This document shows positions 5,417 to 35,325 of a stretch of DNA of 42,292 nucleotides, piece by piece. A model generated the notes under the pieces. That model was not told where the DNA came from, searched no databases, and saw nothing but the letters and a program-made list of their open reading frames with translations. Numbering within the stretch: the stretch's first letter is position 1; each line of letters begins with the position of its first letter. The position numbers and the translations under genes were made by a program. Origin of the DNA: a virus (Duplodnaviria > Heunggongvirae > Uroviricota > Caudoviricetes); the IMG/VR virus record IMGVR_UViG_2651869755_000015, positions 1-42,292 of that record. One strand, 5' to 3'.

Positions 5417-5497
5417 AACTTGTTACCTCGGTCTGTTATCGTTGAGGTAATAATTATGCGTATCTGGTTTGATGTCAATAGATATGAGTTAAAAAAA

Positions 5498-5512
5498 TTA
5501 CCCGTTAGGTAA
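5498..5512. promoter_or_regulatory. Operator-like palindrome TTACCCGTTAGGTAA (OL-equivalent)
   Basis: Perfect TTACC-N5-GGTAA dyad between the repressor gene end and the leftward early operon. Confidence 0.55.
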
Positions 5513-5523
5513 TCAAATAGGCA

Positions 5524-5548
5524 ATAAAAAAGCCGCCAGAAGGCGGCT
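5524..5548 (-). terminator. Rho-independent terminator downstream of repressor gene
   Basis: Stem AGCCGCC/GGCGGCT with AGAA loop, followed on the minus strand by a T-run. Confidence 0.6.
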
Positions 5549-5569
5549 TACTTACTGAAAAATATGATT

Positions 5570-6154
5570 TTATTGTTTGCTTTTTTCGTTCTGGTTGATG
5601 ACAAATTCAATGTAACTTTCGATCTTTGCCTTCTCTGTTTCAGGTAACAATGCGTAGCGCGAGCGGTCATAGTTGATAGTTGCAGGGTCATGCGGATGAA
5701 TCAGTAGTTCATATCCGTGACGCCCGAATGCAGATGCAACATTCTCCAGGGTGGAAATGGAAACGCTGACCTCATTGTTTAACAGGCGGCTGATTGTCAC
5801 CTGGGCGACGCCGGATGCGCGGTGAAGTTTTCCCTGAGTTGAAAGGTCGCGGCTTTCGCTCATCCAGCGTTCCAGGTTGTGAGCCGCCAGCTGACCAATG
5901 TCGCTTGGGCCGACAGGCTGAAAACCTTCCTGAGAAAGCGAGCGATCGATATCAAGCCAGTTACGGGGTTTATTGGCGGCAGCTTCAATTTTTCGCGCAA
6001 CCTGGTCGCCGATAACCTTCTTGCCAAGAGCCCAGCGGTTTACCAGATTTGCCTGAGTTCCAAGTTTTTCAGCCATCCGCGTCTGAACACCATTGAATTC
6101 ACGGTCGATCAAGTCGTTGAGATTTTGCCTGCGGACGTCCTGGATACTTTTCAT
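5570..6154 (-). CDS. Prophage repressor, tandem HTH (XRE-type), no obvious peptidase S24 domain
   Basis: 194 aa; two HTH-like segments (VQTRMAEKLGTQANLVNRW; VAQVTISRLLNNEVSVSISTLENVASAF); divergent from a Cro-like gene with three operators between them; no Ala-Gly/Ser-Lys autocleavage signature seen. Confidence 0.65.
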   Translation of the reverse strand: MKSIQDVRRQNLNDLIDREFNGVQTRMAEKLGTQANLVNRWALGKKVIGDQVARKIEAAANKPRNWLDIDRSLSQEGFQPVGPSDIGQLAAHNLERWMSESRDLSTQGKLHRASGVAQVTISRLLNNEVSVSISTLENVASAFGRHGYELLIHPHDPATINYDRSRYALLPETEKAKIESYIEFVINQNEKSKQ

Positions 6155-6209
6155 TTTCTGGAAAATCGCCTCATATCTGAATCAGAAGATGATTCAATTT
6201 AAAGCAATA

Positions 6210-6272
6210 TTACCCAACAGGTAAATGCACCTCATGGGTAACTATCCTTGATTTTTGTTACCTTATAGGTGA
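6210..6272. promoter_or_regulatory. Divergent immunity promoter region with three operator-like dyads (OR-equivalent)
   Basis: TTACCCAACAGGTAA (6210-6224), partial CACCTCATGGGTAA (about 6229-6242), TTACCTTATAGGTGA (6258-6272) between the repressor and cro-like start codons. Confidence 0.6.
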
Positions 6273-6308
6273 ATATTTATTATCTGAAATAAATATCAGG
6301 CAATAGCT

Positions 6309-6539
6309 ATGAGCGATAACGGACATTTCGATTTCAAAAAGCACTGGCTTGCACTTACTCCGGATGAGCGTGAAGCCTTCGCACAGGAAGCCGGAACGAC
6401 GAGTCACTATATCCAGACTCACTTAACAGGTAAGCGCAAAATGCCAGGTAAGGTATTGATGGATGGGCTTTTTAAAGCCTGTAAATCAAGACAATGGCTG
6501 CGCTCAAAAGCAGAACTGGCATACTTCTTCTACTCATGA
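6309..6539 (+). CDS. Cro-like small HTH regulator
   Basis: 76-aa protein divergent from the repressor; followed by a terminator hairpin. Confidence 0.55.
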   Translation: MSDNGHFDFKKHWLALTPDEREAFAQEAGTTSHYIQTHLTGKRKMPGKVLMDGLFKACKSRQWLRSKAELAYFFYS

Positions 6540-6560
6540 TATCCAGCCACAACCCTCTGT

Positions 6561-6584
6561 AGACCGCCATCCGGCGGTCTTTTC
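6561..6584 (+). terminator. Rho-independent terminator after cro-like gene
   Basis: Stem AGACCGCC/GGCGGTCT, loop ATCC, followed by TTTT. Confidence 0.55.
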
Positions 6585-6594
6585 ATATCTATTC

Positions 6595-6609
6595 GTACCT
6601 CAAAGGTAA
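6595..6609. promoter_or_regulatory. Operator-like dyad GTACCTCAAAGGTAA (one mismatch)
   Basis: Near-perfect copy of the TTACC-N5-GGTAA dyad upstream of the gene at 6690. Confidence 0.4.
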
Positions 6610-6689
6610 TAAAAAACCAAATATGGTTGATCTTTTTTTTGTGTCAGCACAAAATAACCGTAATCCCAATACTAATAACAGGGCTTACC

Positions 6690-6890
6690 ATGGAAATCAT
6701 TACACGTATTGATGCCGCAAAGCGCGGACTTAAACGCTACTACACCGGAAAAACATGTAAGCACGGACATGACAGTGAACGCTGGGTTTACAACGGACAC
6801 TGTGTTGAGTGCACCATGGAATCAAACCGTCGTATCAGGGCAGAGATTAAGCAGATCATGATTAATTCCTCCCCACAACATTCAAGCTGA
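6690..6890 (+). CDS. Hypothetical Cys/His-rich small protein (CII-position gene)
   Basis: ATG at 6690; CKHGHDSERWVYNGHCVEC cluster suggests metal binding; sits where lambdoid phages carry cII. Confidence 0.4.
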   Translation: MEIITRIDAAKRGLKRYYTGKTCKHGHDSERWVYNGHCVECTMESNRRIRAEIKQIMINSSPQHSS

Positions 6891-9467: not shown

Positions 9468-9952
9468 GCAAGATTGACTATCAAAAGCTTCGTGAAATCG
9501 CTGAAAAAACAAAAATTGCTGGTGAAGCACCTGTAATGCCTTTCGATCAGCGAATTAATGCGCTTAACGATTTTATGAAGCACTTTTCGCCAGATATCGT
9601 GCTGGCATTGTTGGATGAGATCAACGCATTAGAGGAAACGCGTATCAACGATGTTTGCCGTATTGCGGAACTAACAAAACAACTGGAGTTGGCAAAATCA
9701 AAACTCAACGAGCAGCGTGAGTATTACGAGGGCGTTATCTCGGATGGAAGTAAGCGCATAGCAGAGTTAGAAAGTGATTCTCAGGCACAAAAGTTAGTTG
9801 AAGCAATCATTGTTGCGATAGAAAACGAACAGGAACGTCTTTTTGATGAAGATTACCTAATGGATTCGAAAGAATGCATTGACGTAATTCGTGAAGAAGT
9901 AAAGCGATGGAATGATTCCCGCGCCGCTGGCATTCGCATCAAAGGAGAGTGA
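9464..9952 (+). CDS. Ead/Ea22-like coiled-coil protein
   Basis: GTG start after AAAGGAGG; N-terminus MSKIDYQKLREIAEK and coiled-coil character typical of Ea22-like proteins. Confidence 0.5.
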   Translation: MSKIDYQKLREIAEKTKIAGEAPVMPFDQRINALNDFMKHFSPDIVLALLDEINALEETRINDVCRIAELTKQLELAKSKLNEQREYYEGVISDGSKRIAELESDSQAQKLVEAIIVAIENEQERLFDEDYLMDSKECIDVIREEVKRWNDSRAAGIRIKGE

Positions 9953-9953
9953 G

Positions 9954-10709
9954 ATGATTCACTACCACGGTGGGCCTATTACTCCTGATACGTGCGCAAT
10001 GAGAGCATGGAAAGGGCGACATGCGTTTATCAGTTTTGCGCATTCAGGCCAGATCAATCTCGCGGCTGAATACTGTCAGTCGTTCGCGCTGGACAACGGT
10101 GCATTCACCGCCTGGAAAGCAGCTGGCAAAAACAAAATCGACTGGAGCGATTACTACGAGTTTGTTGCTCGCTGGAAGAATCACCCAGGATTCGATTTTG
10201 CCATTATCCCGGATGTTATTGATGGCGGAGAGGAGGAAAATGATGCGCTTCTGAATGAGTGGCCTCACGGAAAACTAGCTGGCGTTCCAGTGTGGCACAT
10301 GAATGAAAGTGACGAGCGATTTATTCATTTGTGCAATGAGTTTCCGCGAGTGGCTATCGGTAGTTGTGGCGACTATGACGTAAAGCGCCCAACTCTTGCG
10401 GTAGCCAGAATGAAAGACCTGATTCGTCACATTGTTGATGGGCATGGTCAGCCGGTTACGAAACTACATGGATTGCGCATGTTAAATCCGCTGATATTCA
10501 CAAAATTACCCTTAGCCAGCGCAGATAGTACGAACGTCGCTCGAAACATCGGTATTGATAAAGCCTGGTCTGGGGCTTATGCACCTGCAAGTAAAGAGAC
10601 ACGCGCAGCATTAATGGTAGAACGGATTGAGGCACACAATAGCCCTGGTTCTCTTGCGTATTGTGAACAACGCGACCGCTTTGAAATGCAATTGCAACTA
10701 GCAGTTTAA
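9954..10709 (+). CDS. Candidate tRNA-guanine-transglycosylase-like (DpdA-like) TIM-barrel protein
   Basis: ATG at 9954 after AAAGGAGAG; segments FALDNGAF, FAIIPDV, VAIGSCGDY, KLHGLRMLNP parallel E. coli Tgt segments LTDSGGFQ, VMIFDEC, YAVGGLAVGE, YLMGVGKP (recalled). Confidence 0.45.
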   Translation: MIHYHGGPITPDTCAMRAWKGRHAFISFAHSGQINLAAEYCQSFALDNGAFTAWKAAGKNKIDWSDYYEFVARWKNHPGFDFAIIPDVIDGGEEENDALLNEWPHGKLAGVPVWHMNESDERFIHLCNEFPRVAIGSCGDYDVKRPTLAVARMKDLIRHIVDGHGQPVTKLHGLRMLNPLIFTKLPLASADSTNVARNIGIDKAWSGAYAPASKETRAALMVERIEAHNSPGSLAYCEQRDRFEMQLQLAV

Positions 10710-11832: not shown

Positions 11833-11859
11833 GTATGTTCGCAATAAAGGTGAATATTG

Positions 11860-12198
11860 ATGGCTAAATCAGCAGCAGAGCGCAAAGCCGCTCAGAGAGC
11901 CAGACAAGCTGAATCCGGTGTACGTAAGCTGGAGATTGTGCTTGATGCTCAGGAAATTGAAATGCTGGAGCGTAACTGTGCCACGCGTCGCCCCGGGCGT
12001 GCGCCTTACGAATTTGGTGAGTATATAGCGTTACTGATCCGCCAGGATGATGCACGCGTGCGCGGGCGTATAAAATCGATCAGCAGAAAACGTTGCGGTA
12101 AGTGCGGCGAGAGAGTTCCTGTGAATTCATGCCCGTGTAATGGTGACTCGCAATGCTGGGTGACTAAAGGCTGGCATGAAACGAAATTAATAGTGTGA
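11860..12198 (+). CDS. Hypothetical DNA-binding protein (RHH-like N-terminus, Cys-rich zinc-ribbon-like C-terminus)
   Basis: ATG at 11860 after AAAGGTGAA; C-terminal CGKCGERVPVNSCPCNGDSQC; stop codon lies inside the 14-bp palindrome at 12194-12207. Confidence 0.45.
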   Translation: MAKSAAERKAAQRARQAESGVRKLEIVLDAQEIEMLERNCATRRPGRAPYEFGEYIALLIRQDDARVRGRIKSISRKRCGKCGERVPVNSCPCNGDSQCWVTKGWHETKLIV

Positions 12199-12207
12199 CA
12201 TGTCACG
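12194..12207. repeat. 14-bp perfect palindrome TGTGACATGTCACG (copy 1)
   Basis: Exact 14-mer shared with 14598-14611 and, in reverse complement, with 32009-32022. Confidence 0.85.
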
Positions 12208-12215
12208 AAGGTGTT

Positions 12216-12428
12216 ATGCCAAAAATACGCTACGACCTTGAAGATATGAGAGATAACTCAGCAAATTTTCCGAAAGAGGTTAAATTTCTCATGCATAAGT
12301 ATGGTTGCGCCAGGAGGGATATAGTTATCGACAGTCAGCACCCTTGCGGCGAGGATGTAATTTTCATTCGCGGTAAATGGGAAGGGTATCTTGACGAGAG
12401 TTTTTACGATGAATTTGATGGACTTTGA
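12216..12428 (+). CDS. Hypothetical protein (70 aa)
   Basis: ATG at 12216 preceded by GAAGGTG; last gene before the terminator ahead of terS. Confidence 0.4.
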   Translation: MPKIRYDLEDMRDNSANFPKEVKFLMHKYGCARRDIVIDSQHPCGEDVIFIRGKWEGYLDESFYDEFDGL

Positions 12429-12433
12429 ATACT

Positions 12434-12459
12434 GCCGCCAACTATGGCGGCTTTATTTT
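12434..12459 (+). terminator. Rho-independent terminator between early genes and terS
   Basis: Stem GCCGCC/GGCGGC, loop AACTAT, then TTTATTTT. Confidence 0.55.
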
Positions 12460-12470
12460 GCATGTTACTA

Positions 12471-12503
12471 TTACCACAACGGTAACTATTACCACGGTGG
12501 TTA
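12471..12503. promoter_or_regulatory. Operator-like dyads immediately upstream of terS
   Basis: TTACCACAACGGTAA (12471-12485) and a degenerate copy TTACCACGGTGGTTA (12489-12503) within ACTATTACCAC direct repeats. Confidence 0.5.
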
Positions 12504-13099
12504 TGATGCCTGCTGAACCTAAAACCTATAAACGCAAATCAACGCAATTTAAGCCGCTCACAGCAATGCAGGAGGCTTATTGCCAGTCATACATCAAAAC
12601 GCCTGAAAACCAGACTCAGGCAGCGATTAACGCAGGATTCTCCCCAAATACAGCGGCAGTTAAAGCCAGTGTCATGATGCGCGATGAACGCATTCAAAAA
12701 CGGATTGCCGAGTTGATGGAGGAGCGCAACAAACGAATGCGCGTCAGTGCTGATTACGTTCTCATGCGCCTGGTGGAGATCGACCAGATGGACGTGATTG
12801 ATATCCTCAACGACGATGGGAGCCTTAAGCCAATCCGCGAGTGGCCGAAAATCTGGCGCACTACGCTTAGCGGCTTTGATCTGTCATCGACCATCATGAA
12901 CATGAACGAGGATTCGATAGAGACAATCCTCAAAAAAATTAAATGGCCTGACAAGGTGAAGAACCTTGAGCTGATTGGTAAGCACGTCGATGTCAATGCA
13001 TTCAAAGAACGCCTGGATGTTAATGTGAATGTGACAATTGCTGATCGCATAGCGGCAGCCAGGAAGAGACTGAAAGAACGTCAGGATGGCAATCAGTGA
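12503..13099 (+). CDS. Terminase small subunit
   Basis: ATG at 12503 (track ORF starts upstream at 12425); HTH-like N-terminal region LTAMQEAYCQSYIKT...AAINAGFS; 4-nt overlap with terL. Confidence 0.65.
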   Translation: MMPAEPKTYKRKSTQFKPLTAMQEAYCQSYIKTPENQTQAAINAGFSPNTAAVKASVMMRDERIQKRIAELMEERNKRMRVSADYVLMRLVEIDQMDVIDILNDDGSLKPIREWPKIWRTTLSGFDLSSTIMNMNEDSIETILKKIKWPDKVKNLELIGKHVDVNAFKERLDVNVNVTIADRIAAARKRLKERQDGNQ

Positions 13100-14597: not shown

Positions 14598-14611
14598 TGT
14601 GACATGTCACG
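14598..14611. repeat. 14-bp perfect palindrome TGTGACATGTCACG (copy 2)
   Basis: Identical 14-mer to copy 1. Confidence 0.85.
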
Positions 14612-14614
14612 GCG

Positions 14615-15037
14615 TTAGAAGGTTATTTTATCGAATGCGGCGTTGATTGCCTTGGCGTCCTGCTCAGCACCAACCACATCAAGTAAAGATCTTTTACTAA
14701 GCACTTCAGCCAGGCATTGTAACTTCATGTTGTATAAGTTTTCGCGCATGTAATCATCATCACTTTTTTCTTTGGCGTATACAGCGCGAGAAATATCAAA
14801 CACATTGCCTTTTTCCATTTCAGTTTTCTGCGCTGAAATCCAGTCATGGCAAGTAACTCCTATTCCATGGTCATCGCTAAGCGTTAACCCGGCAAGTCGC
14901 TCACCTGGAATTGCTTCACAAAGCATTTCATTTCCTGCAAAAACACCATAAAAAATTGAGTCATCACCCTGAACAATGCGTACATATTTGCACGGCCATT
15001 CATTTAGATATTTAGCTAGCATGTCGGCTGTTTTCAT
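14615..15037 (-). CDS. Hypothetical moron protein (140 aa)
   Basis: Opposite-strand gene inserted between terL and portal, bounded by terminator hairpins on both sides. Confidence 0.5.
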   Translation of the reverse strand: MKTADMLAKYLNEWPCKYVRIVQGDDSIFYGVFAGNEMLCEAIPGERLAGLTLSDDHGIGVTCHDWISAQKTEMEKGNVFDISRAVYAKEKSDDDYMRENLYNMKLQCLAEVLSKRSLLDVVGAEQDAKAINAAFDKITF

Positions 15038-15202: not shown

Positions 15203-15279
15203 TGGCGTGGCATGCAGGATTCGAACCTGCGACCAACCGCTTAGAAGGCGGTTGCTCTGTCCAACTGAGCTAATGCCAC
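15203..15279 (-). tRNA. tRNA-Arg (anticodon UCU)
   Basis: Minus-strand 77-nt sequence GTGGCATTAGCTCAGTTGGACAGAGCAACCGCCTTCTAAGCGGTTGGTCGCAGGTTCGAATCCTGCATGCCACGCCA folds as a cloverleaf (7-bp acceptor stem, GTTCGAATC T-loop, anticodon loop CTTCTAA, 3' CCA). Confidence 0.85.
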
Positions 15280-15927: not shown

Positions 15928-17607
15928 ATGGCGGAAACAACTAAAGAGCGATTGAACAAACAGTTCGCACAACTTGAAAGCGAGCGTCAGTCGTTCGAGC
16001 CGCACTGGCGCGAGTTGAGTGATTACATCAACCCGCGTGGTTCCCGCTTTCTGACTTCTGAGGCCAACCGTAACGATCGGCGCAATACACGCATTATTGA
16101 TTCGACCGGGACTATGGCGGCGCGCACTCTCGCCAGCGGCATGATGTCAGGCATCACAAGCCCCGCGCGTCCGTGGTTTCGCCTGGCTACGCCAGATCCT
16201 GAAATGATGGATTATGGCCCTGTTAAGTTGTGGCTTGAGGCAGTTCAGAACCGCATGAACGATATGTTCAATAAGTCGAATCTCTACCAGTCTCTTCCGC
16301 AGTTATACGGAAGCCTCGGCACATACAGCACTGGTGCAATGGCAGTGCTGGAGGATGACGAGGACATCATTCGCACAATGCCATTCCCGATAGGCAGTTA
16401 CTACCTGGCTAACTCACCTCGTGGCAGTGTTGACACCTGTTTTCGCAAGTTCTCTATGACTGTTCGTCAGCTTGTTCAGGAGTTCGGGCTAAATAACGTC
16501 AGCGAATCCGTAAAAAGCATGTGGGAAAGCGGCACCTACGAGAAGTGGATCGAAGTGATGCATTCGGTTTACCCGAACATTGACCGCGATACATCGAAGC
16601 TGGATAGCAAGAACAAGCCATTCAAATCGGTTTATTACGAGGTTGGTGGAGATAACGACAAGTTGTTGCGTGAGTCCGGATTCGATGAGTTTCCAATTAT
16701 GGCTCCGCGCTGGGAAGTTAACGGCGAAGATGTTTATGGATCATCATGCCCGGGTATGCTGGCGCTTGGGCCTGTTAAGGCATTGCAGCTTCTCCAGAAG
16801 CGCAAGTCGCAGTTGATTGATAAAGCCACCAATCCGCCGATGGTTGCTCCGACTTCCCTCAAGAATCAGCGCGCCTCCCTTCTTCCTGGCGACATCACGT
16901 ATATCGATCAGATTACTGGTCAGGATGGCTTCAGGCCTGCTTATCTGGTTAACCCCAGTACAGCAGATTTGGTGGCAGACATTCAGGACACTCGTCAAAT
17001 CATTAACAGCGCCTACTTTGTCGATCTGTTCATGATGTTGCAGAACATCAATACCCGCTCGATGCCTGTTGAAGCGGTGATCGAAATGAAAGAAGAAAAA
17101 CTTCTGATGTTGGGGCCGGTTCTGGAGCGTCTGAACGACGAATGTCTTAATCCTCTCATTGACCGCGCTTTCTCGATGATGGTGCGCAAAAACATGCTGC
17201 CGCCACCGCCTGACGCGATGGAAGGCATGCCCCTGAAGGTCGAATACATTTCCGTCATGGCTCAGGCGCAGAAGTCTATCGGCCTGTCCAGTCTGGCGTC
17301 CACGGTTAACTTCATTGGTCAACTTGCGCAAGCGAAACCAGAAGCTCTCGACAAACTCAACGTTGATCAGGCGATCGATGCATTCGCTGATATGTCCGGA
17401 GTGTCTCCAACCGTCATTGTTCCGCAGGAACAGGTTGAGCAGGCTCGCCAGCAACGGGCACAGCAACAACAGCAGCAACAAATGATGGCGATGGGGATGG
17501 CGGCGGCACAGGGGGCCAAGACGCTAAGCGAAGCTAAAACTTCGGATCCGAGTGTGTTGTCAGCTATGGCGAATGCAGTTAGTGGTCAGGGTGGGCAATC
17601 ACAATGA
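15928..17607 (+). CDS. Portal (head-to-tail connector) protein, podovirus/T7-like
   Basis: 559 aa; Gln/Ala/Met-rich C-terminus (QQRAQQQQQQQMMAMGMAAAQGA) resembling the recalled T7 gp8 C-terminus; position after terminase. Confidence 0.8.
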   Translation: MAETTKERLNKQFAQLESERQSFEPHWRELSDYINPRGSRFLTSEANRNDRRNTRIIDSTGTMAARTLASGMMSGITSPARPWFRLATPDPEMMDYGPVKLWLEAVQNRMNDMFNKSNLYQSLPQLYGSLGTYSTGAMAVLEDDEDIIRTMPFPIGSYYLANSPRGSVDTCFRKFSMTVRQLVQEFGLNNVSESVKSMWESGTYEKWIEVMHSVYPNIDRDTSKLDSKNKPFKSVYYEVGGDNDKLLRESGFDEFPIMAPRWEVNGEDVYGSSCPGMLALGPVKALQLLQKRKSQLIDKATNPPMVAPTSLKNQRASLLPGDITYIDQITGQDGFRPAYLVNPSTADLVADIQDTRQIINSAYFVDLFMMLQNINTRSMPVEAVIEMKEEKLLMLGPVLERLNDECLNPLIDRAFSMMVRKNMLPPPPDAMEGMPLKVEYISVMAQAQKSIGLSSLASTVNFIGQLAQAKPEALDKLNVDQAIDAFADMSGVSPTVIVPQEQVEQARQQRAQQQQQQQMMAMGMAAAQGAKTLSEAKTSDPSVLSAMANAVSGQGGQSQ

Positions 17608-27198: not shown

Positions 27199-28896
27199 AT
27201 GCCAATTTACACAGATGATCCGGGACAGGGAATTAACCAGCCAATTGGCAACGCGCCAGCAGGGCTTGGCGAATCGCTGCTTTCTTCCCTTAAGCAGGGA
27301 TTTGAAGAGGGGCCGGTCATGTCCGGCTACCGCTTTGCGCAGGCCGACTCGCTGGCGAATGACCAAAACTCTACAGTTATCAGTAAGCAGGAAGCGGATG
27401 AGCTCCTGAAGCAGTACGGCGTAAAGAGCATAAACGTGCCAGATTCTGGCGTTACGCAGGCTTTTCTCGATCATGTTATTGCCGAACGCAAAGATTCTCT
27501 GGCACGCCAGCAGATCGCGATGTCGGCACCGAGCGGGTGGGTAGCCACGCCGCTTAATTTCGCAGCCAGCCTAGCTGGTTCAATGGCAGATCCTGGTAAC
27601 GTGGCGCTGGCGCTGGTTCCGTTCGCTGGAGAAGCAAAGGCGGCTTCTGTGCTTGGCCGATTTGGCGAGCGATTTGTTGCTGGTGCACGCATGGGGGCAG
27701 CGCAGGCGTTGGTGACCGTGCCGCTTACCGGGCTGGCAGCGGCGGCGGAAGGTGACGACTTCACCTATAGCAACGCGTTGGAAAGTACTTTCTTTAACAC
27801 GATGGCTGGCGGTCTAATACATGCCGGCGGCGGCCTTATCGCCGATATCGTGCGACCGCGTCGCGTTCCCGATGCTGCAACGGGAGAGTCCCCGGCGTTT
27901 TCTGGCGATGCGCAGCCAACCCCGGTGATAACGCCTGACAACATTCCGGCGGGCGTGAATATCCCTGAGGTTGGCGCTAACGCAGATCTGGCGGCGGCCA
28001 TTTCCAGTGAAGCGGAGAGCTACGCATACAGCCGGGCTTATGACGACGTGGTTCCTGACTATATGGCGCGCCAGCAGGAGTTACAGAGCGGGCAGATCGG
28101 TAACGTTGCCGACCTGCGTGCCGAGCTTGCGGCTAATCAACGTCATGCTGACTCGCTTGATGCGACGCTGCAGCAGCGCACCAAAAAGTATCAGGGGCAG
28201 CGGATGAAGTTTAAGGATGCGCGCTCTAGGGCACTGAAAGAGATTCAGGCCGAGAAAGACGCCATCGCTGCACGCAATCAGGAGATCAACACATCGCTGG
28301 AGCAGAACGCGACAGCAGAGCAGGCGCGCTGGCGCCAGTCTCAGATTTCCCGCGGCGAGATCCCCGACGACCTGAAAGTCACCATTTCCGAGCGTGCGCA
28401 GCAGATCCTGGACGGCATGCAGATGTCGCCGGTCGCTGGCGCAGTTCGCACTGCCGCAAGCGCCATCAGGGATGCTGACTGGAACGTGAACCAGCAGGCG
28501 TATCGCGCTGCGCTGGCACACATGATGGAAGGACGTAGCCCAGATGTTGAGCCCTTCTATGAACTGCACAAACCAGCACTGCGTGAACGCGCCATCCATC
28601 GCATACAGAACCCGGCACGGCAGGTTGATGAAACGGCTCGCCCAGCAAGCGAAACAGCCGATCGGGTTTATCAAGAAACGCAAAAGGCAGATCATGAAAT
28701 TACCGCTGCCGCTGCAGACCTTGATAACGAGCTCAACCTGAGTAACGCCCTGCTTGACGATATCGCTGTCGATAACCCTGATCTTGCGACCACGTTGCGC
28801 CAGAAACTCAATGATATTCGTGCCGACGCCAGCGACAATAGTATGAGCAACGCTTTCCGGGCATTTGCCGCCTGTATGATTAACCGGGGGATGTGA
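27199..28896 (+). CDS. Internal virion/ejection protein
   Basis: 565 aa Ala-rich protein in the ejection-protein block. Confidence 0.45.
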   Translation: MPIYTDDPGQGINQPIGNAPAGLGESLLSSLKQGFEEGPVMSGYRFAQADSLANDQNSTVISKQEADELLKQYGVKSINVPDSGVTQAFLDHVIAERKDSLARQQIAMSAPSGWVATPLNFAASLAGSMADPGNVALALVPFAGEAKAASVLGRFGERFVAGARMGAAQALVTVPLTGLAAAAEGDDFTYSNALESTFFNTMAGGLIHAGGGLIADIVRPRRVPDAATGESPAFSGDAQPTPVITPDNIPAGVNIPEVGANADLAAAISSEAESYAYSRAYDDVVPDYMARQQELQSGQIGNVADLRAELAANQRHADSLDATLQQRTKKYQGQRMKFKDARSRALKEIQAEKDAIAARNQEINTSLEQNATAEQARWRQSQISRGEIPDDLKVTISERAQQILDGMQMSPVAGAVRTAASAIRDADWNVNQQAYRAALAHMMEGRSPDVEPFYELHKPALRERAIHRIQNPARQVDETARPASETADRVYQETQKADHEITAAAADLDNELNLSNALLDDIAVDNPDLATTLRQKLNDIRADASDNSMSNAFRAFAACMINRGM

Positions 28897-31447: not shown

Positions 31448-32008
31448 ATGAAGGCAATTATATTTTTTGTTTCAATATTGATGTCTGCATTTTCTTTTGC
31501 AGGGCAAAATGTTAAATGCGAACTTCAATACTTTGGAGATAGCGATAAATTTAAGGTAACTCAGTTTTCTTTTATGGGGATTCCATCTGATTCATACCTT
31601 TATACCTGTGCCGACTGTGGAGGCATCCAGATAAACGTGTTCCCATCTATTCAGACTGTTGCCTCCTACTCATTTGAAAACAACATTGATTTCGAAAGGA
31701 AAATCAATGCTGAATACAACAGAAAAGACATAGCTAAACTTGAGATGGAAAACGTTACTCAAGGCGGGAGAATAAAATATTCAATCACCGATACTGGTTT
31801 GGCAGAGTTTTACCCAGAGGGCAAAAAGATAAGCTACCTCTACTTTTTAGCCAAGCAACAAAATGGTAAAGAACAAGTAGGTTATTCAGGATTTGTTACC
31901 TCTAACGGGGATAAGTCATGCTCAATTATTGCGACATATCCAGGAAAAGAAATTTCTTTTCTGGGAAGTAAATCTTTAAGCTACTTTATGAATCATATAT
32001 CAATGTAG
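31448..32008 (+). CDS. AT-rich secreted protein (signal peptide), accessory
   Basis: N-terminal MKAIIFFVSILMSAFSFAGQ signal-peptide-like; visibly AT-rich codon usage; followed by palindrome copy 3. Confidence 0.55.
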   Translation: MKAIIFFVSILMSAFSFAGQNVKCELQYFGDSDKFKVTQFSFMGIPSDSYLYTCADCGGIQINVFPSIQTVASYSFENNIDFERKINAEYNRKDIAKLEMENVTQGGRIKYSITDTGLAEFYPEGKKISYLYFLAKQQNGKEQVGYSGFVTSNGDKSCSIIATYPGKEISFLGSKSLSYFMNHISM

Positions 32009-32022
32009 CGTGACATGTCACA
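32009..32022. repeat. 14-bp perfect palindrome CGTGACATGTCACA (copy 3, inverted orientation)
   Basis: Exact reverse complement of the 14-mer at 12194 and 14598. Confidence 0.85.
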
Positions 32023-32123
32023 GGCCGCTTTCGCGGTCTTGTTTTTAACGGATGCCACCGCCACCCGGGCGGGAATCCGCAGAACGCCCACCGCAGCGGG
32101 AGCCGTCAGCAGCAGTGTCGCTG

Positions 32124-33838: not shown

Positions 33839-34573
33839 TCAGAAGAACCCTGCCTTGTCGTTGATGTACTCCGCGTGGGTCTGGATATCACGCAGGCATT
33901 TGCTCACACCGACGATGTAGCAGAACATGGTGGTCAGCTCCGCCGCCGCGCCCGATACGTCGTGCCCGTCTTCCTGTAACTGGTTCAGCAGATTCATCAG
34001 CAGTGAGTTCTCCGTCAGGCCGAGAACACCAGACGGCGAATGAATCAGGCTGCGGTAGCCGGGCTTCAGTGGGGCACTGTATTCTTTTTTGTCTTCCAGC
34101 TTGATCGCCTCCATAATGGCGGGCATGAATTTTTCAATTACCTGAGTGGCCTTTGATAAATCAGCTCCACCTGAGAGACGAACATCTCCACTGACATTTG
34201 CGGGTTTTCTGTCGAAGTAGCAATCTTCCAGTTTTTCGAAGACCTCCCACGCTTTTTCAGTCTCAAGAATTTTCGCATGTCGTGCTGCACCGCGAGCGGT
34301 CCATAAGAAAAGATGACTTACTTTTGGTGCAATATTAAGCAAACCTCTTTGAGAGGACTCGTTCTTAAATGCTCGTAATTCTTCGCCTATCAGCTTGAAA
34401 CAATGTTTTCCCTCAATGAATCGATCTGCATTTCGTTGATAGTTTTGACGAATCAGTTTGGGTTCTGTGTCATACAAATCAGCAAGCATTTCTGTAGTCA
34501 TTACAGGGATGTTGCAATGAGTTGTTATCGGCAACTTATCAATAGCTATATTACGCATTTTCATTGCCTCCAT
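33839..34573 (-). CDS. Antirepressor-like protein (ORF6N/Ant N-terminal domain plus C-terminal domain)
   Basis: N-terminal VMTTEMLADLYDTEPKLIRQNYQRNADRFIEGKHCFKL matches the ORF6N/Ant pattern; C-terminal ~70 aa homologous to the 35372-35629 product. Start may be 34558 or 34564. Confidence 0.65.
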   Translation of the reverse strand: MEAMKMRNIAIDKLPITTHCNIPVMTTEMLADLYDTEPKLIRQNYQRNADRFIEGKHCFKLIGEELRAFKNESSQRGLLNIAPKVSHLFLWTARGAARHAKILETEKAWEVFEKLEDCYFDRKPANVSGDVRLSGGADLSKATQVIEKFMPAIMEAIKLEDKKEYSAPLKPGYRSLIHSPSGVLGLTENSLLMNLLNQLQEDGHDVSGAAAELTTMFCYIVGVSKCLRDIQTHAEYINDKAGFF

Positions 34574-35057: not shown

Positions 35058-35211
35058 AGCGATACCTCTACTAGTAAGTTACCCACCACCGCAACGCCAA
35101 TTGCTGGTGGTGAACTGGACAAGGTTGGCGTACCGGCCTAGTAGGTACCGGCGCACCTTTCGGTGCCCCTGCCCAGCCCACCATAATTCGGATATGACTG
35201 TGCTATACGCA

Positions 35212-35235
35212 TAAAAAAACCACGTCTGGCGTGGT
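35212..35235 (-). terminator. Rho-independent terminator downstream of small antirepressor gene
   Basis: Minus strand ACCACGCCAGACGTGGT followed by TTTTTTT. Confidence 0.55.
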
Positions 35236-35325
35236 ATGCGCCTACTAGTAATCCGGGACGCCAATCCCGGCACTGGATTTTGCCAGTGCCTGATTACTAT
35301 GGCACAAGAGGAGTGCGATGTAAAT

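Follow-up and report, generated by a model that had tools for sequence, protein, structure and literature searches.

A PHROG 536 protein and the palindrome at its stop codon as a probable protein-operator pair in epsilon15-type and other temperate phages

Ribbon-helix-helix (RHH) regulators are mostly repressors, and several described systems come close to the locus reported here. In phage P22, the immI antirepressor region is repressed by the RHH proteins Arc and Mnt. E. coli MatP carries its RHH domain after a basic helix and acts on matS, whose GTGAC/GTCAC half-sites occur in few, dispersed and often intragenic copies. LacI has three operators, one of which overlaps the 3′ end of its own gene, and LacI bound there gives rise to stop-less transcripts and to trans-translation of LacI (PMC13584721, PMC3985003). 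Lambda Q-type antiterminators are encoded by the last early gene before the late genes, use a DNA site near a terminator and carry a zinc-type Cys cluster. Here we analyzed a 42,292-nt stretch of DNA (IMG/VR record IMGVR_UViG_2651869755_000015, hereafter the window) from an epsilon15/phiV10-type (Uetakevirus) temperate phage of E. coli, in which a gene at the early/late junction encodes a 112-aa protein with a predicted RHH fold and a Cys cluster, and ends inside a copy of the palindrome GTGAC-N2-GTCAC. This protein is a member of PHROG 536, and YGTGAC-N2-GTCACR is very likely the site to which the PHROG 536 protein binds, judging from the joint occurrence of gene and palindrome in other genomes.

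The locus resembles several of these systems in part. Arc and Mnt lack a zinc module, their operators lie at their own divergent promoters and not at the 3′ end of a gene, and no sequence similarity to them was detected. The likeness to LacI, namely self-limitation through an operator on the 3′ end of the own gene and three operators per system, would be one of mechanism; LacI is a helix-turn-helix tetramer and the lac operators lie within ~500 bp, whereas the phage sites are kilobases apart. Q-type antiterminators show no sequence or fold similarity to the family, they coexist with it, and the phage palindrome does not lie inside a promoter. Full-length homologues with 30-98% identity, equal length, a basic N-terminus and the same Cys pattern are found in epsilon15 (gp49), phiV10 (p55), N15 (gp46) and ZF40 (gp22). 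What appears to be new is the pairing of gene and palindrome, a conserved and apparently mobile protein-plus-operator cassette in which the operator lies on the stop codon. A literature search found no paper containing the palindrome.

We found GTGAC-N2-GTCAC three times in the window, compared with 0.04 copies expected, and none of 100 shuffles reached three; the GTGACATGTCAC cores start at 12195, 14599 and 32010. Every complete family-carrying genome that we checked has the palindrome, usually in three copies, with exactly three in each of epsilon15, PAT1, ZF40, N15, phiKO2 and Vibrio phage K233. When eight genomes (341 kb) were pooled, there were 22 copies versus 0.33 expected; for all spacers of 0, 1 and 3-6 bp taken together, the same genomes yielded a single match. 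Within each genome, the palindrome was among only 1-17 of the 9216 possible 5-mer/spacer inverted repeats that reached three copies, and the remaining ones were known CI-type operators and SopB sites. Lambda and P22 have neither a family member (hmmsearch, E up to 1) nor an exact site. By BLASTP, the family was the sole window ORF (open reading frame) with homologues in even three of the eight palindrome-bearing elements, and it was present in all eight. Because no other window protein is common to these elements, the palindrome, and not TTACC-N5-GGTAA, is the probable target of the protein. The 112-aa ORF from ATG 11860, its stop codon within palindrome copy 1 and the palindrome as a possible target had all been proposed in an earlier, sequence-only reading of the window, and the first two were confirmed while the third is supported by gene-site co-occurrence and co-variation.

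In most lineages one site lies at, or adjoins, the 3′ end of the family gene (Table 1). More distant members (30-48% identity) were taken from metagenomic and genomic contigs, which carry L numbers here. The proteins of the other lineages in which the site overlaps the stop codon (N15/phiKO2 and the Pseudomonas elements L107 and L108) are ~30% identical to the window protein. At the other extreme, the gene of Escherichia phage Chlobot has 92% nucleotide identity to the window gene and is located in the leftward arm near xis/int, its ORF being split in the annotation of the record; because the similarity runs from the ATG and ends at the stop, gene and site seem to travel as a cassette. In the P. 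putida-type elements L108 and L109 the stop of the family gene lies inside a hybrid site, GTGAC-AG-GTAAC, and four to six copies of cGTTAC-N2-GTAACg plus two GTGAC/GTAAC hybrids were present (L108 353-18838, L109 10019-18838). Here the site has changed along with the protein lineage, to a GTTAC half-site. No GTGAC site was found with the divergent members L101 and L110. The stop of the L101 member (P0227) coincides with two ACAAAT-N5-ATTTGT inverted repeats (2490-2540), possibly an alternative specificity.

Table 1. Features of the window around the RHH/Cys gene, and sites in other elements that carry the family gene
Element	Feature	Position	Strand	Remarks
Window	RHH and Cys-cluster gene	11860..12198	+	112 aa; stop TGA 12196-12198; PHROG 536
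Window	Shine-Dalgarno-like AAAGGTGA	11846..11853	+	6 nt 5′ of ATG 11860; read from sequence
Window	Palindrome copy 1, 14-mer TGTGACATGTCACG	12194..12207		core GTGACATGTCAC 12195-12206; overlaps stop of RHH/Cys gene; proposed operator
Window	Palindrome copy 2, TGTGACATGTCACG	14598..14611		just past terL; syntenic in epsilon15 and PAT1
Window	Palindrome copy 3, CGTGACATGTCACA	32009..32022		begins 1 nt past stop of last structural-operon ORF (31448-32008)
Window	70-aa ORF, phrog_1541	12216..12428	+	unknown function; between RHH/Cys gene and terminator
Window	Intrinsic terminator, GCCGCCAACTATGGCGGC + TTTATTTT	12434..12459	+	hairpin 12434-12451, then T-run; closes early-right operon
Window	Two TTACC-N5-GGTAA-type sites	12471..12503		12471-12485 exact; 12489-12503 one mismatch; CI-type operators
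Window	terS	12506..13099	+	first late gene downstream
epsilon15, PAT1 (Uetakevirus)	Palindrome			three copies, syntenic with window
ZF40 (myovirus)	Palindrome			one copy 3 nt past gp22 stop
N15, phiKO2 (linear plasmid-prophages)	Palindrome			copies mutually syntenic; one overlaps TGA of gene 46/gp45
Vibrio phage K233 (HNH-terminase phage, integrase and ParA-like genes)	Palindrome			three copies
L093 (Vibrio)	Palindrome			three sites
L094/L095 (lambda-like)	Palindrome			one site 15 bp 5′ of family gene
L098	Palindrome			one-mismatch site 3 nt past stop
L100	Palindrome			two one-mismatch sites
L104 (Aeromonas phage)	GTGACCGGACAC			twice, one 25 bp 5′ of family gene
L107 (P. fluorescens group)	Palindrome			site overlaps TGA
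L111 (Mu-like)	Palindrome			site within last codons
L112 (N15-like)	Palindrome			two sites at repA-equivalent position
L113 (Serratia)	Palindrome			two sites
L114, Escherichia phage Chlobot (lambda-like, has N and Q)	Family gene and TGTGACATGTCACG	17149-17505		TGTGACATGTCACG 6 nt past stop

In many lineages the family gene is the last early gene, and in K233, L093, L100, L107 and L108 it directly precedes the holin gene. In a P2-like Yersinia phage the member lies in the early operon, after gpA, and in the Mu-like phage just before gemA. The Vibrio phages have one site 23-31 bp 5′ of terS. A palindrome followed by an intrinsic terminator was seen directly before the holin gene in L107 (10387-10670), L108 (10381-10556), L094 (6679-6904), L100 (2044-2374) and L092 (33227-33513), with a promoter-like sequence between palindrome and terminator in L107, L108, L094 and L092, a layout that is PR′-tR′-like. 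Precomputed Pfam matches for the called genes of these contig loci include no Q-like protein.

The window protein matched the PHROG 536 profile over its full length (E 3.2e-54, residues 1-111 on profile positions 2-114 of 115), and epsilon15 gp49, phiV10 p55, N15 gp46, phiKO2 gp45 and ZF40 gp22 belong to the same family. Its PHROG label, "transcriptional regulator", is an annotation only, and the 718 relatives in a large protein collection (150 representatives at the 50% cluster level) are all named "hypothetical". Homologues were found by tblastn in 154 phage records. The named hosts of family members are Escherichia, Salmonella, Citrobacter, Klebsiella, Serratia, Yersinia, Pectobacterium, Vibrio, Enterovibrio, Aeromonas and Pseudomonas, and the genomes range from lambdoid, N15-like, Mu-like and P2-like to myovirus and podovirus. 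No Pfam or NCBIfam match above cut-off was obtained for the window protein, Foldseek searches against PDB and BFVD were uninformative, and curated RHH models (RHH_1, RHH_5 or RepB-RCR_reg) were weakly touched by just 1-2 of 58 family members and not by the query itself. The AlphaFold2 model and the conservation figures rest on 58 diverse homologues. The model (pLDDT 92.3) consists of a basic helix (residues 5-19), an extended segment (20-29), two helices (30-42 and 52-74) and, after a loop rich in Cys, a short C-terminal helix, and contains the strand-helix-helix core of the RHH (Arc/MetJ/CopG) superfamily; the fold is thus a confidently predicted RHH fold. The basic N-terminal segment and the C-terminal CxxC...CxC cluster that had been read from the translation are both present, the cysteines being C79-x2-C82, C91-x-C93 and C99, plus C40. 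All the homologues have C79 and C82, at least 90% of them have C99, P87 and G95, and one more Cys occurs within positions 90-93, so that four conserved cysteines form a putative C4 zinc site. R8 and R13 of the N-terminal helix are nearly invariant. Very probably, the window protein is a regulator that binds DNA in a sequence-specific manner, and we infer its binding to the palindrome from the predicted fold together with gene-site co-occurrence and co-variation, which stand at the level of sequence comparison. A family of hypothetical proteins thereby becomes a candidate protein-operator pair, with a 14-bp site and a predicted specificity variant, GTTAC.

As to what the protein does at its sites, we tentatively propose a boundary or roadblock repressor that acts at the early/late junction and regulates itself, a proposal in which doubt slightly outweighs confidence. 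Because only 27 nt separate the RHH/Cys gene from the gene upstream, it seems to have no promoter of its own and to be transcribed from the early-right operon. The protein, proposed to be a dimeric RHH regulator with a C-terminal four-Cys zinc module and YGTGAC-N2-GTCACR as its operator, would then be made as the last product of that operon. It would bind the copy overlapping its own stop codon and block RNA polymerase coming from the early promoter. The block would yield truncated, stop-less messages and so limit synthesis of the protein, as LacI does at the operator overlapping the end of lacI, and the same block would seal off the early operon where it adjoins terS. At copies 2 and 3, upstream of terminators, the bound protein may reinforce insulation between converging units. 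In general terms, the junction would be closed ahead of the next temporal class, represented by terS in the window; ZF40 has Q in this place, the Mu-like phage gemA, and the phage-plasmid-like elements holin.

The arrangement of sites and terminators was examined in the three Uetakeviruses, in which each site lies 1-45 nt upstream of the intrinsic terminator of the transcription unit ending there. Site 1 marks the end of the early-right operon, site 2 that of a minus-strand moron converging on terL, and site 3 that of the structural operon. In the window, copy 2 is flanked by the stop of the minus-strand ORF (14615-14617) and by the terminator hairpin of that ORF (14594-14575), and copy 3, whose position is syntenic in epsilon15 and PAT1, abuts a terminator at 32022-32039. 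The terminator that was predicted just after the RHH/Cys gene is real, and the 70-aa ORF intervenes between the two. This ORF is an indel polymorphism, present in 28 of 80 near-identical IMG/VR loci and missing in the other 52, which retain only a nine-codon remnant, ATGCATGATGAATTTGATGGGTTTTGA; at the sequence level it lies outside the conserved module.

Several of these positions speak for a negative effect. Since the Uetakevirus sites precede terminators, and read-through from the moron would give antisense terL RNA, a block to transcription would suit them. In the Aeromonas phage, the site occupies approximately +8 to +19 of a GTGACG-17-TATAGT promoter directly ahead of the family gene, which is the classical position of an auto-operator. 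Conserved sites inside repA of N15/phiKO2 (the second site, ~620 nt into the gene), together with the pair at the equivalent position in an incomplete upstream ORF of L112, also favor this, as do the tolerance of a 186-bp indel after site 1 in near-identical phages and the prevalence of repressors in the RHH fold class. Self-limitation by a roadblock fits because the site recurs at the stop codon in lineages with differing C-terminal residues, and also because it lies just before the gene start in L094 and the Aeromonas phage. On this basis the main effect of the protein may be negative, through a roadblock or auto-repression, although we put this weakly constrained reading at a little below an even chance.

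Other observations weigh against a boundary or roadblock repressor. Roadblocks formed by one RHH dimer on a 12-bp site are usually leaky, the strong intrinsic terminators beside all three Uetakevirus sites make a roadblock look redundant, and the zinc module has no explained part in it. A literature search found no experimental paper on any PHROG 536 member and none tying the family to a function. The third site of N15/phiKO2 precedes the antirepressor-operon promoter, from which isrK-like and C4 RNAs are transcribed, and lies ~65 bp upstream of where that promoter starts; in L107 and L094 ~92 bp separate the center of the site from a promoter-like sequence downstream, after which come an intrinsic terminator and lysis genes, with the same order and, as judged by eye, similar spacing in L108; and in ZF40 a site lies ~89 bp upstream of a promoter-like sequence ahead of ninB-HNH-Q. 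Sites so placed upstream of promoters, in N15/phiKO2, L107, L094 and ZF40, are more in keeping with an activator. Most sites of the P. putida-type elements fall within the coding regions of late genes, many of them in terS, terL and portal, and these look architectural rather than operator-like.

The sequence-only reading had suggested that the protein could be a late activator or a second repressor. A DNA-binding regulator at the early/late junction is supported, a general stand-in for Q is not, and of late activation and closure of the early operon we lean toward the latter. In its stronger form, late activation would mean that the protein, bound at the palindromes, lets polymerase pass terminators or activates late promoters and so replaces Q in phages without it, such as the Uetakeviruses and the Vibrio/Pseudomonas phage-plasmid-like elements. 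This agrees with the place of the gene as the last early gene, directly before terS in the window and before holin in the five elements named above, and with the absence, as that reading had noted, of any Q-like protein among the 26 window ORFs scanned against PHROGs (a few small ORFs lay outside the scan) and among the Pfam matches of the called genes in the holin-type loci. Sites 1 and 3 stand just before plus-strand terminators that divide late gene blocks, the order of site, promoter-like sequence, terminator and holin in L107, L108, L094, L100 and K233 resembles lambda PR′-tR′, the site center is near -90 in L107, L094 and ZF40, and a processive antiterminator would tolerate the 186-bp indel. 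However, N15, phiKO2, ZF40, L112 and Chlobot encode Q-like antiterminators besides the family member, and further members are found in Mu-like and P2-like phages, which have late activators of their own; the family is thus no replacement for Q in general. The orientation of site 2 is that of the minus-strand moron, where read-through makes no sense, the Aeromonas site is in operator position, no similarity to any Q family was found in Pfam or PHROG, and every Uetakevirus late block has its own CI-type operator, which suggests direct repressor control without a late factor. We therefore regard a late-gene switch as rather unlikely, and as slightly less likely still the broader idea that the protein and YGTGAC-N2-GTCACR constitute an unrecognized mobile early-to-late switch, loading before terminators or late promoter-terminator cassettes and gating polymerase. 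If such a switch did exist, phages without Q would have a sequence-unrelated, fourth type of Q-like late regulator. The epsilon15/phiV10-type phages and many Vibrio and Pseudomonas phage-plasmid-like elements lack a recognizable Q. Two candidates of this type were discarded: site 1 is unlikely to serve a terS promoter as an activator site that works from upstream and depends on spacing, given the 186-bp indel in near-identical phages and the lack of a convincing sigma-70 promoter, and the Ogr_Delta model of the P2 Ogr/P4 Delta late activators was unmatched (Pfam).

The half-sites of the palindrome are identical to those of matS, GTGACRNYGTCAC (PMC6907758), which was unexpected and raises the question of cross-talk with host chromosome organization. 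An architectural binder like MatP, marking or bridging a few phage sites for DNA organization, pairing or host SMC complexes, would also account for the low and constant number of three copies per genome, for the many intragenic sites (repA in N15/phiKO2, cII and gp08 in ZF40, terS, terL and portal in L108) and for the movement of gene and site as a cassette in Chlobot. Yet the phage spacer is strictly 2 bp versus 3 bp in matS, with one 3-bp-spacer copy in the eight genomes, several sites are in clear promoter-proximal positions, and the protein model lacks the four-helix bundle and coiled coil of MatP. MatP similarity was not detectable (hhalign probability 0.5%, no MatP Pfam match, MatP not in the profile-versus-PDB matches), and a search for MatP homologues gave near-identical sequences only. 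The family also reaches Pseudomonas, which excludes its confinement to the MatP/MukBEF clade; to our knowledge, Pseudomonas has neither MatP nor MukBEF. We consider an architectural role improbable. More improbable still is that another host or phage factor binds the palindromes and that the protein acts elsewhere, for example as a TraR/DksA-like polymerase binder via its zinc module. Binding of the protein to the palindrome is itself deduced from sequence comparison, the protein shares with DksA/TraR a CxxCGxx(L/I)P motif after a long helix, and the best PDB matches of the family profile are TraR and YbiI (residues 48-109), but their E value of about 0.03 is not significant. Moreover, single, differently spaced cysteines stand in place of the second CxxC that the DksA/TraR finger has, the helix aligning with the channel-inserting helix of TraR is helix B of the RHH core, Pfam zf-dskA_traR is not among the 25 most frequent of the 27 families matching the 58 members, and gene-site linkage and co-variation extend from Vibrio to Pseudomonas with no other protein in common. 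Membership in TraR/DksA was rejected, the CxxC-N17-CxxC signature being incomplete and the query having no Pfam match. Two further roles for the palindromes were rejected: they are not the SopB centromeres of N15, as Sop sites are GCGACC-N2-GGTCGC, with four copies in other positions, and a packaging (cos/pac) role does not agree with N15 and ZF40, which have no site near the terminase genes.

The second repeat considered in the window, TTACC-N5-GGTAA, had been named in the sequence-only reading as a possible target of the RHH/Cys protein, and this was rejected. We counted 15 sites versus 0.7 expected (5436-6609, 8541, 8603, 12471, 12489, 15602, 33752, 35326, 35706 and others). They flank the CI gene and also precede the resolvase gene, terS, the portal operon, the antirepressor operon and the tailspike gene; the epsilon15 GenBank record annotates the equivalents as repressor-binding, including those before terS, portal and tailspike; and they are missing in ZF40 and N15, which carry the family. 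Because CI-type operators precede the late blocks, these seem to be under direct CI control. Of the operator-bearing promoter predicted ahead of terS, the operators at 12471 and 12489 were found, while a convincing sigma-70 promoter was not.

The region 11500-12600 matches phiV10, TL-2011b, ZX5, PAS61 and O157 typing phages at 92-98% identity (megablast); relatives of phiV10/epsilon15 serve as reporter and typing phages, so that knowledge of the regulator has practical value. PHROG scans gave the order integrase, NinI-like phosphatase, methyltransferase, RecT/exonuclease and CI-like repressor (5570-6154, minus strand), followed by replication O/P-like genes, resolvase, a queuine-tRNA-ribosyltransferase-like gene, a DUF551 protein, the RHH/Cys gene, terS, terL and portal. 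With its AT spacer, the palindrome presents GTGACA, which matches the -35 hexamer at 5/6 positions, on either strand, and at copy 3 (31992-32021, minus strand) GTGACA and TATGAT at 18 bp make a 10/12 promoter-like match aimed back into the structural operon. A small ORF at 6627-6890 has a Cys/His cluster (…CKHGHDSERWVYNGHCVEC…) and occupies the lambda cII position, as a second candidate small zinc-type protein. The queuine tRNA-ribosyltransferase-like gene (9912-10709, phrog_887, E 6e-104) is possibly of the DpdA type, for 7-deazaguanine DNA modification, and the moron region between terL and the portal operon contains a tRNA-Arg (anticodon TCT) at 15203-15279 on the minus strand. Upstream of the anti-repressor gene (33842-34573, minus strand), Rfam C4 antisense RNA and isrK-like RNA matches were located at 35103-35188 and 35213-35289, both on the minus strand; this set corresponds to a P1/N15-type immI module in a Uetakevirus, and N15 has the same RNA pair at 28301-28489.

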